This document shows positions 18,225-18,339 of a DNA stretch of 21,968 nucleotides, in pieces; the stretch's first letter is position 1, and each line of letters opens with the position of its first letter. Position numbers and translations under genes: made by a program. Under the pieces are notes generated by a model, which did not search any database, was not told the DNA's origin, and was given only the letters and a program-made list of their open reading frames with translations. The DNA is taken from positions 1 to 21,968 of the forward strand of contig CAMTVD010000020.1 in NCBI GenBank assembly GCA_947085095.1. Reading direction: 5' to 3'. The DNA is from an uncultured Thermus sp. Lineage in GTDB: Bacteria; Deinococcota; Deinococci; Deinococcales; Thermaceae.

Positions 18225-18300
18225 TAAAGAAAAGCCCCCGGGGCCTGCCCGGGAAGCGGGGCTTCCCAGGCCTGGCTTAGGTTTTGCCCCAGGCGCGCAT
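18225..18300 (-). promoter_or_regulatory. Putative leader-peptide transcription attenuator upstream of lysJK
   Basis: Mini-ORF ATG CGC GCC TGG GGC AAA ACC TAA (18300-18277), overlapping alternative hairpins, then a UUUUCUUUA tract. Confidence 0.6.
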
Positions 18301-18309
18301 CTCCCCCTA

Positions 18310-18339
18310 AGGGTAGGGGGGTTGGCCCGGGTCTGTCAA
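18310..18339 (-). promoter_or_regulatory. sigmaA promoter for lysJK
   Basis: Minus-strand TTGACA (18339-18334), 18 nt, then TACCCT (18315-18310). Confidence 0.65.

Follow-up and report, generated by a model that had tools for sequence, protein, structure and literature searches.

The lysJ-lysK operon considered here lies on contig CAMTVD010000020.1 (assembly GCA_947085095.1) of an uncultured Thermus sp., within a stretch of 21,968 nucleotides that we analyzed as a whole (the window), and is preceded by a short leader that is probably a lysine-sensing, ribosome-mediated (leader-peptide) transcription attenuator. The leader, all of whose parts are on the minus strand, occupies a 170-bp gap that separates two divergent genes, folK (18370-18849, plus strand; NCBIfam TIGR01498) and lysJ (17024..18199, minus strand). 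The product of lysJ, [LysW]-aminoadipate semialdehyde transaminase, matched NCBIfam NF042418 with 793.8 bits (cut-off 700), and that of lysK (15951..17027, minus strand), [LysW]-lysine hydrolase, matched NF003367 with 473.6 bits (cut-off 363); the lysJ stop codon is overlapped by the lysK ATG (ATGA). The final two steps of the LysW route to lysine are carried out by LysJ and LysK, as given in an excerpt of PMC12998189.

Inspection of the sequence together with the genus alignment placed a -10 element of the TAnnnT type, TACCCT, at 18310..18315, with 18 nt between it and the -35 element TTGACA at 18334..18339. Nine nucleotides (TAGGGGGAG) separate the -10 element from the ATG, at 18300, of a mini open reading frame (mini-ORF) of 7 sense codons, read in the sequence as ATG CGC GCC TGG GGC AAA ACC TAA (MRAWGKT, 18277..18300), whose codon 6, the lysine codon AAA at 18283..18285, is the proposed regulatory codon. 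An earlier interpretation of the window, the sequence-only reading, had described this promoter and the lysine-containing ORF 9 nt beyond it, and had located both correctly on the minus strand. Transcription probably starts at 18301..18303, which would leave a 5' untranslated region of 0-3 nt (GAG ahead of AUG).

Past the stop codon and a GCCAG spacer, the window carries hairpin A (regions 2:3, 18247..18271), GCCUGGGAAGC-CCC-GCUUCCCGGGC, with 11 pairs, which we propose as the antiterminator. A predicted intrinsic terminator (regions 3:4) follows at 18226..18257, with the 5' arm GCUUCCCGGG, the loop CAGGC and the 3' arm CCCGGGGGC, and ends in the U tract UUUUCUUU at 18233-18226; a terminator scan called the site at 18255-18235, with 8 pairs (6 G-C) followed by CUUUUCUUUA. 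Both structures had been proposed ahead of the lysJ Shine-Dalgarno (SD) sequence, and both are present in the form described. As the strand GCUUCCCGGG is common to hairpin A and the terminator, the two are mutually exclusive. The terminator cannot be the end of an upstream gene, because it is located in a divergent promoter region, and the core motif of hairpin A occurs only once in the genome. Codons 2-5 of the mini-ORF (region 1, 18286..18296) are rich in G+C and may provide an alternative partner for the 3' arm of the terminator. The SD sequence of lysJ, GGGAGGUGG, lies at 18215..18223, 2 nt past the U tract, and the other loci of the genus have a GGAGG-type sequence at the same place. The start of lysJ is ambiguous, being either the ATG at 18199 or a GTG at 18211, 3 nt past the SD; lysJ of relatives starts 4-8 codons farther upstream, and the LysJ protein of the window may begin MESVMPEW… instead of MPEW….

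The lysJ 5' region was detected by DNA search in each of the 32 genomes of the genus, and the upstream DNA was cut out by tblastn and then parsed. The complete unit of promoter, ORF, AAA codon, stop, hairpin A and terminator is kept in 30 of the 32, and counts out of 30 below refer to these loci. The -35 hexamer TTGACA, found also in sister-genus leaders, is exact in 30/30; the promoter spacer is 17 nt long in 25 loci and 18 nt in five, with a variable sequence. All 30 have TACCCT, TAGCCT, TAGGCT or TACTCT as the -10 element, at a distance of 7-9 nt from the ATG. Directly past the stop codon 3-5 nt vary in sequence and length, and hairpin A begins 1-4 nt past the stop in 30/30. Its stem is nearly invariant and its pairs are kept in 29-30/30; its loops vary (CCC, CUG, GGC, GGU, CCAA, CGAA and others). 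A terminator stem of 7-9 bp with a U tract is present in every one of the 30 loci. The upstream neighbor gene varies between species, showing that the element belongs to lysJ and travels with it.

Within the mini-ORF the constraint is unevenly spread. Its length is exactly 7 sense codons in all 30 loci, with no indels, and its stop codon stands at one fixed position as TGA (18 loci), TAA (10) or TAG (2). Codons 2, 3 and 7 are freely variable; codon 4 is CGG or CGC (Arg) in 21/30 and TGG (Trp) in 9/30; codon 5 is GGC, GGG or CGC; and codon 6 is AAA in 30/30. The lysine codons in 687 long ORFs of the window's genome are AAA in 9.8% of cases (1115 vs 10242 AAG), and the genome has one tRNA-Lys gene with the anticodon UUU and one with CUU. 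Judged by these alignments, the conservation is far beyond what chance would give. A fixed start and length, any kind of stop, a free peptide and one invariant rare codon together look like the pattern of a regulatory leader ORF, and would be hard to explain by RNA structure alone.

A scan of hot-spring metagenomes, anchored solely on both halves of hairpin A, listed at least 80 loci, most of which are unrelated hairpins. At least 15 loci of the present type were among the matches listed, one of them cut off by a contig end, and all 14 complete ones (14/14) share an ORF of 7 codons in which codon 6 is AAA and codon 8 the stop, with new variants at codons 2-3. The sequence-only reading had held that lysJ-lysK has its own minimal, near-leaderless attenuator with a single lysine codon, and had proposed a comparison of lysJ upstream regions as the check: the proposal came through this comparison, in 30/32 genomes and in these 14 metagenome loci. 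The same check was to look for a conserved lysine mini-ORF and for covarying stems, and only the first was found, again in 30/32 genomes.

To mimic a ribosome, the first b nucleotides of 27 unique leaders were blocked and the remainder was folded at 70 °C. Hairpin A, a helix of 10-13 bp, had a median free energy of -13.2 kcal/mol at this temperature, against -7.1 for the terminator (30 loci of the genus). With b = 20-29 nt blocked, the 3' arm of the terminator (region 4) was unpaired in 26-27/27 leaders; with b = 30-32 nt the states were mixed; and with b of 33 nt or more the 3:4 terminator formed in 27/27. When b was 7 nt or less, as with no ribosome, region 4 paired with ORF codons 2-5, over hairpin A and beside the U tract, in about 25-27 of the 27. 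A ribosome opens the mRNA to about 11-13 nt beyond the first base of the P-site codon and covers about 15. Its edge would thus be near nt 24-28 with the AAA codon in the A site and near nt 30-34 with the stop codon there. Taken with the blocked folds, these estimates fit a geometry in which hairpin A remains closed during a stall at Lys6 and is opened once the ribosome arrives at the stop. That the 2:3 helix survives a stall at Lys6 and is broken by a ribosome at the stop had been predicted for the window, and constrained folding reproduced it in 26-27/27 unique leaders.

Considering the parts and their geometry together, we suggest that the lysJ-lysK operon is controlled by lysine through the position of a ribosome on the mini-ORF. 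Transcription would start 0-3 nt ahead of the AUG, and a ribosome would load on the nearly leaderless 5' end of the RNA. Region 3 (GCUUCCCGGGC) could then pair either with region 2, giving the stronger hairpin A, or with region 4, giving the terminator and its U tract. When Lys-tRNA is scarce, the ribosome would wait, its A site occupied by the rare AAA codon 6 and its front edge just before hairpin A; hairpin A would form, region 4 would stay unpaired and RNA polymerase would read into lysJ-lysK. When lysine is plentiful, the ribosome would advance two codons to the stop and open the base of hairpin A, region 3 would pair with region 4 and transcription would end at 18226. RNA without a ribosome may also terminate, in that region 4 can pair with ORF codons 2-5.

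This last pairing suggests, tentatively, an attenuator with three states, in which region 4 pairs with ORF codons 2-5 when no ribosome is present or with region 3 when a ribosome stands at the stop, and a ribosome at the AAA codon denies it both partners. The 1:4 helix is part of the minimum free energy structure of the window leader and appears as 6 pairs in the alifold consensus; it shows no compensatory change, and its register differs between sequences. The sequence-only reading had listed a 1:2 helix, GCCUGG (18294-18289) with CCAGGC (18275-18270). Its letters are present, but the helix needs the GCCAG spacer, found in the window only (1/30), and the leader thus lacks the classical 1:2 protector as a conserved feature. 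A three-state arrangement, if true, would replace that protector, and no shorter amino-acid leader would be known than this one, which has 7 codons, a single sensing codon and a leaderless start; the Arg codon 4 (21/30 species) could then also report arginine for the bifunctional LysJ and LysK.

Codons 4-6 read Arg-Gly-Lys or Arg-Arg-Lys in 21/30 species, which is a '+X+' motif, and Trp replaces the arginine in 9/30. An excerpt of PMC12583479 reports that '+X+' motifs slow macrolide-bound ribosomes; by analogy, the motif could lengthen the pause at the lysine codon.

Four environmental RNA libraries were compared with the window. Parts of the locus are present in 24 sequencing runs, all as assembled (Logan) contigs, in which RNA ends, strand and expression levels are unreadable and gaps in cover carry no information. 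Contigs bridging the leader into lysJ were seen in X2 record 14 (18147-~18303), X3 record 22 (18149-18270) and X4 record 29 (18064-18276), and it follows that leader and lysJ can share one molecule. X2 records 14 and 15, which carry an ORF variant also present in a metagenome locus (L183), both stop at G 18303 (12 nt beyond 18291), 3 nt ahead of the AUG and 7 nt past the -10 element. These ends are a weak hint of a transcription start there, as contigs cannot prove a 5' end. About 40% of genes in Deinococcus-Thermus are leaderless, TAnnnT being the high-GC form of the -10 element, and a TAnnnT about 10 bp upstream of the start codon marks leaderless genes (PMC3160421, in excerpt). By analogy, a leaderless start of the mini-ORF is plausible.

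An order-wide LysJ search covered 151 genomes, from which 37 upstream regions were fetched and read. In four other genera (g3, g4, g8 and g21) lysJ is preceded by a near-leaderless short ORF of 13-15 codons that contains lysine codons and is followed by a hairpin and a U-rich tract. Such leaders were found at 1/1 loci of g4 (MFVSSRKPVRREVG), 2/2 of g3 (MRPRSRKPRHRGLA, MLPRSRKPRHRGLG), 9/9 complete loci of g8 plus one truncated (MKALKPRKPEVRGKP and variants) and 1/1 of g21 (MLLEMKKTILEPG, with AAA AAA). No leader precedes lysJ in g5 (genome G140, locus L031), where the same promoter is followed directly by an SD and a GTG, or at the two loci of g2 (L035, L036). In g11 and at 4/5 g14 loci there is likewise no leader, and lysJ directly follows a lysZ-like gene; the remaining g14 locus (L044), whose upstream region is of another kind, lacks a leader as well. 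None was seen at the lysJ loci read in families f3, f5 and f2. A LysJ scan of genome contigs gave at least 80 loci in Deinococcus, Chloroflexota and other distant groups, with none from the window's family among the matches listed. Just ahead of the SD, the two g2 loci carry an A+T-rich stretch (…GTATAAACGAATAAC…) that may serve as an operator for a protein such as an arginine repressor.

The gene for homocitrate synthase, hcs, was found in the window's genome (G000) with PF00682, and its leader region lies on contig C10 at about 49100-49240 of the minus strand. The hcs promoter, TTGACA-N17-TATCCT, is followed after 10 nt by the ATG of a 14-codon leader, ATG CTG GCC CGT GAG AAA AAA CTC GGC CGC CGG GGG GTA GGA TAG (MLAREKKLGRRGVG and stop), and then by the terminator CCCGGCCCGAGUUCGGGCCGG with UUUUCUUUU. 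We take this hcs leader to be the published leader of the main lysine cluster. The lysJ leaders of g3 and g4 are similar to it in length and at several residues; they too have about 14 codons, Lys at 6-7 and Arg-Arg-Gly near the end, a form from which the window ORF, with its stop at codon 8, departs. The genus-form ORF resembles the first half of the g3 and g4 leaders (MAARRKP followed by the stop in L014, compared with ...SRKPRHRG...). From this likeness the window element looks like a shortened paralogue or derivative of a lysine leader family.

Several observations weigh against a lysine attenuator. Two of the 32 genus genomes, G011 and G025, keep the promoter and lack the unit, so that the element is dispensable there: in G011 (L150) the -10 element runs straight into AAGGAGGAT-ATG of lysJ, and in G025 (L151) the ATG reads ATA and there is neither a Lys codon nor a terminator. 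Together with G140, these genomes keep the promoter and have lost the ORF and both hairpins jointly. A single lysine codon is a weak sensor compared with classical leaders, and leaderless initiation must keep pace with RNA polymerase over about 70 nt. The blocked-fold model, of limited power here, did not yield a clear-cut switch when applied to the longer leaders of hcs, g3, g4, g8 and g21. Covariation analysis found 0 compensatory pairs, and just one-sided C-G to U-G changes; because the stems are almost invariant, the structure is supported by thermodynamics and conservation, not by covariation. When ORF nt 4-15 were shuffled 200 times, a median of 14.5% of the shuffles did as well as the real sequence in forming the 1:4 helix, which as a predicted substitute for the protector is thus not above shuffles. 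Among the RNA contigs, X2 record 16 (18274-18754, depth 40.5) spans the leader, the promoter and most of folK, and may be DNA carry-over, antisense RNA or a longer folK transcript; RNA libraries may hold DNA or other transcripts. The single-sequence statistics also fall on this side: the terminator scan gave 3 sites against 2.8 expected from shuffles, which is not significant; the fold of the window leader showed no extra stability over dinucleotide shuffles (z = -0.57); and a sigma-70 scan called 0 promoters, missing this one because TACCCT matches just 3/6 positions of TATAAT. In DNA this rich in G+C, neither the promoter scan nor the terminator scan was informative. Taken by itself, the sequence pattern is no more than chance would give, and the case rests on the comparison with other genomes.

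Searches for known regulatory elements were negative. An Rfam scan with E values up to 10 found no riboswitch, leader or cis-regulatory family at the leader; its 7 matches in the region searched were all far below the gathering scores. An AT-rich ARG box (the ArgR operator) was not visible in the window promoter when this was inspected by eye, and the promoter spacer is unconserved.

An attenuator that is coupled to translation without being specific for lysine was considered first among the alternatives. Any stall on codons 3-7 would then serve, such as one at the Arg CGG codon 4 or one brought about by a general lack of charged tRNA or of ribosomes, and the leader would report arginine and lysine, or general translation capacity, which would suit enzymes shared with the arginine route. 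The blocked folds agree with this in that region 4 stays open under a block of the first 20-29 nt, whichever codon stalls; but AAA alone is invariant, and is the rare synonym, and we regard such a switch as unlikely. Arginine sensing in particular would draw on the Arg at codon 4 in 21/30, on the Arg-rich sister-genus leaders (5/14 residues in g3, 3/14 in g4 and in hcs) and on the corresponding arginine steps that LysJ and LysK also catalyze (PMC12998189, in excerpt). Codon 4 is nevertheless Trp in 9/30, a C/U change that looks like a constraint on RNA pairing and not on the peptide, and CGG and CGC, at 31 and 28 per 1000, are abundant and hence poor sensors. A further contribution from Arg2 had been suggested for the window, and this did not carry over to the genus, where codon 2 is Arg in just 5/30. 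Sensing of arginine is thus possible but unsupported.

Secondly, the choice between terminator and antiterminator could be set by an RNA-binding protein, a small RNA, temperature or a small ligand, with the mini-ORF incidental or a mere pairing strand. The stem of hairpin A, invariant in sequence despite its variable loop, is what a protein or ligand site would show; ORF codons 3-5 change just from C to U, as a pairing strand might; and translation of the mini-ORF is something that we infer. A pairing strand would, however, hardly keep an ATG, a length and a stop of any kind at one position while the adjoining spacer varies and takes indels, or hold the -10 element 7-9 nt from the ATG. The leaders of other genera, with very different sequences, share just the design of a lysine ORF and a terminator; the element, at 75 nt, is small for an aptamer and has no match in Rfam. 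We therefore hold a switch without a ribosome to be improbable. Lastly, that the element is a decayed remnant of the longer, 14-codon sister-genus lysJ leader, now inert or a constitutive partial terminator, seems very unlikely: its ORF does resemble the first half of the g3 and g4 leaders, and two genus genomes and one sister genus have lost the element yet keep lysJ, but near-identity across 30 species with differing lysJ N-termini and promoter spacers is unexpected for inert sequence, which would not hold a rare codon and a stop in place, and hairpin A is much stronger than the terminator, which makes constitutive termination unlikely.

Two long ORFs around the leader were rejected as artefacts of the G+C-rich sequence and are not genes: one of 661 aa (17024-19009, minus strand), which is a read-through upstream of lysJ, and one of 385 aa (17123-18280, plus strand), which is the antisense frame of lysJ. 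Elsewhere in the window, a terminator-like hairpin of 10 pairs followed by UUUUGCUUUA was noted at 19285-19308 (plus strand), after an S1-domain-like ORF (18839-19270).

Lysine synthesis through alpha-aminoadipate and LysW in this group serves as a model of how the pathways for lysine and arginine evolved. Here lysJ and lysK stand apart from the main cluster, and a separate lysine switch on them would, if true, show co-regulation of a split pathway. Leader length falls from 15, 14 or 13 codons in sister genera, through 7 codons here, to no leader at all in three genomes, a series that would illustrate the shortening and loss of a leader in nature, and the leader-less loci of G011, G025 and G140 are useful natural controls. 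With its length of about 75 nt, its single sensing codon and its leaderless start, the element would be near the lower size limit for such a mechanism; it offers a convenient test case for the coupling of ribosome and polymerase at high temperature, and might serve as a compact lysine-responsive part for the engineering of thermophiles.

To our knowledge only the main hcs cluster of this group has a described attenuator. A full-text literature search found no description of a lysJ leader or attenuator, although older Thermus papers on lysine or ArgR may mention one. The leader-peptide attenuator of the major lysine (alpha-aminoadipate) cluster of Thermus thermophilus, that is, the hcs leader, was reportedly described by Tsubouchi et al. 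in J Biol Chem in 2005. The lysJ leader shares with it the organism group, the pathway and the signal (Lys AAA codons), as well as an ORF near the -10 element followed by an intrinsic terminator. It differs in having 7 codons instead of 14, one lysine codon instead of two in tandem, a stop one codon after the lysine and an antiterminator wholly downstream of the ORF (that of hcs lies inside it), and in governing a separate two-gene unit.

With the trp, his, leu, thr and phe attenuators of enterobacteria the leader has in common a short ORF containing codons for the end product, a strand shared by antiterminator and terminator, and a decision made by ribosome position. Those classical leaders are 14-32 codons long, contain 2-7 regulatory codons, are translated from an SD-led start and form a 1:2 pause or protector hairpin; the window leader, in contrast, has one regulatory codon, a nearly leaderless start, a 1:2 helix in 1/30 and no match to an Rfam leader. 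Leaderless poly-cysteine short ORFs are said to attenuate mycobacterial operons (Canestrari et al. in 2020), by a mechanism that is not a simple intrinsic terminator switch. There, too, translation of a leaderless mini-ORF signals to downstream genes how well one amino acid is supplied, though through runs of Cys codons. The lysine riboswitch (L-box, RF00168) likewise lets lysine control lysine genes through premature termination, but it does so with an aptamer of about 180 nt that binds lysine directly, unlike the element of about 75 nt described here, which did not match it at E values up to 10. The type of mechanism, leader-peptide attenuation, is thus already known, including a lysine leader in this group, and the lysJ-lysK member is new. 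It is notable for its minimal form: seven codons, of which one does the sensing, a nearly leaderless start, and an antiterminator directly past the stop.

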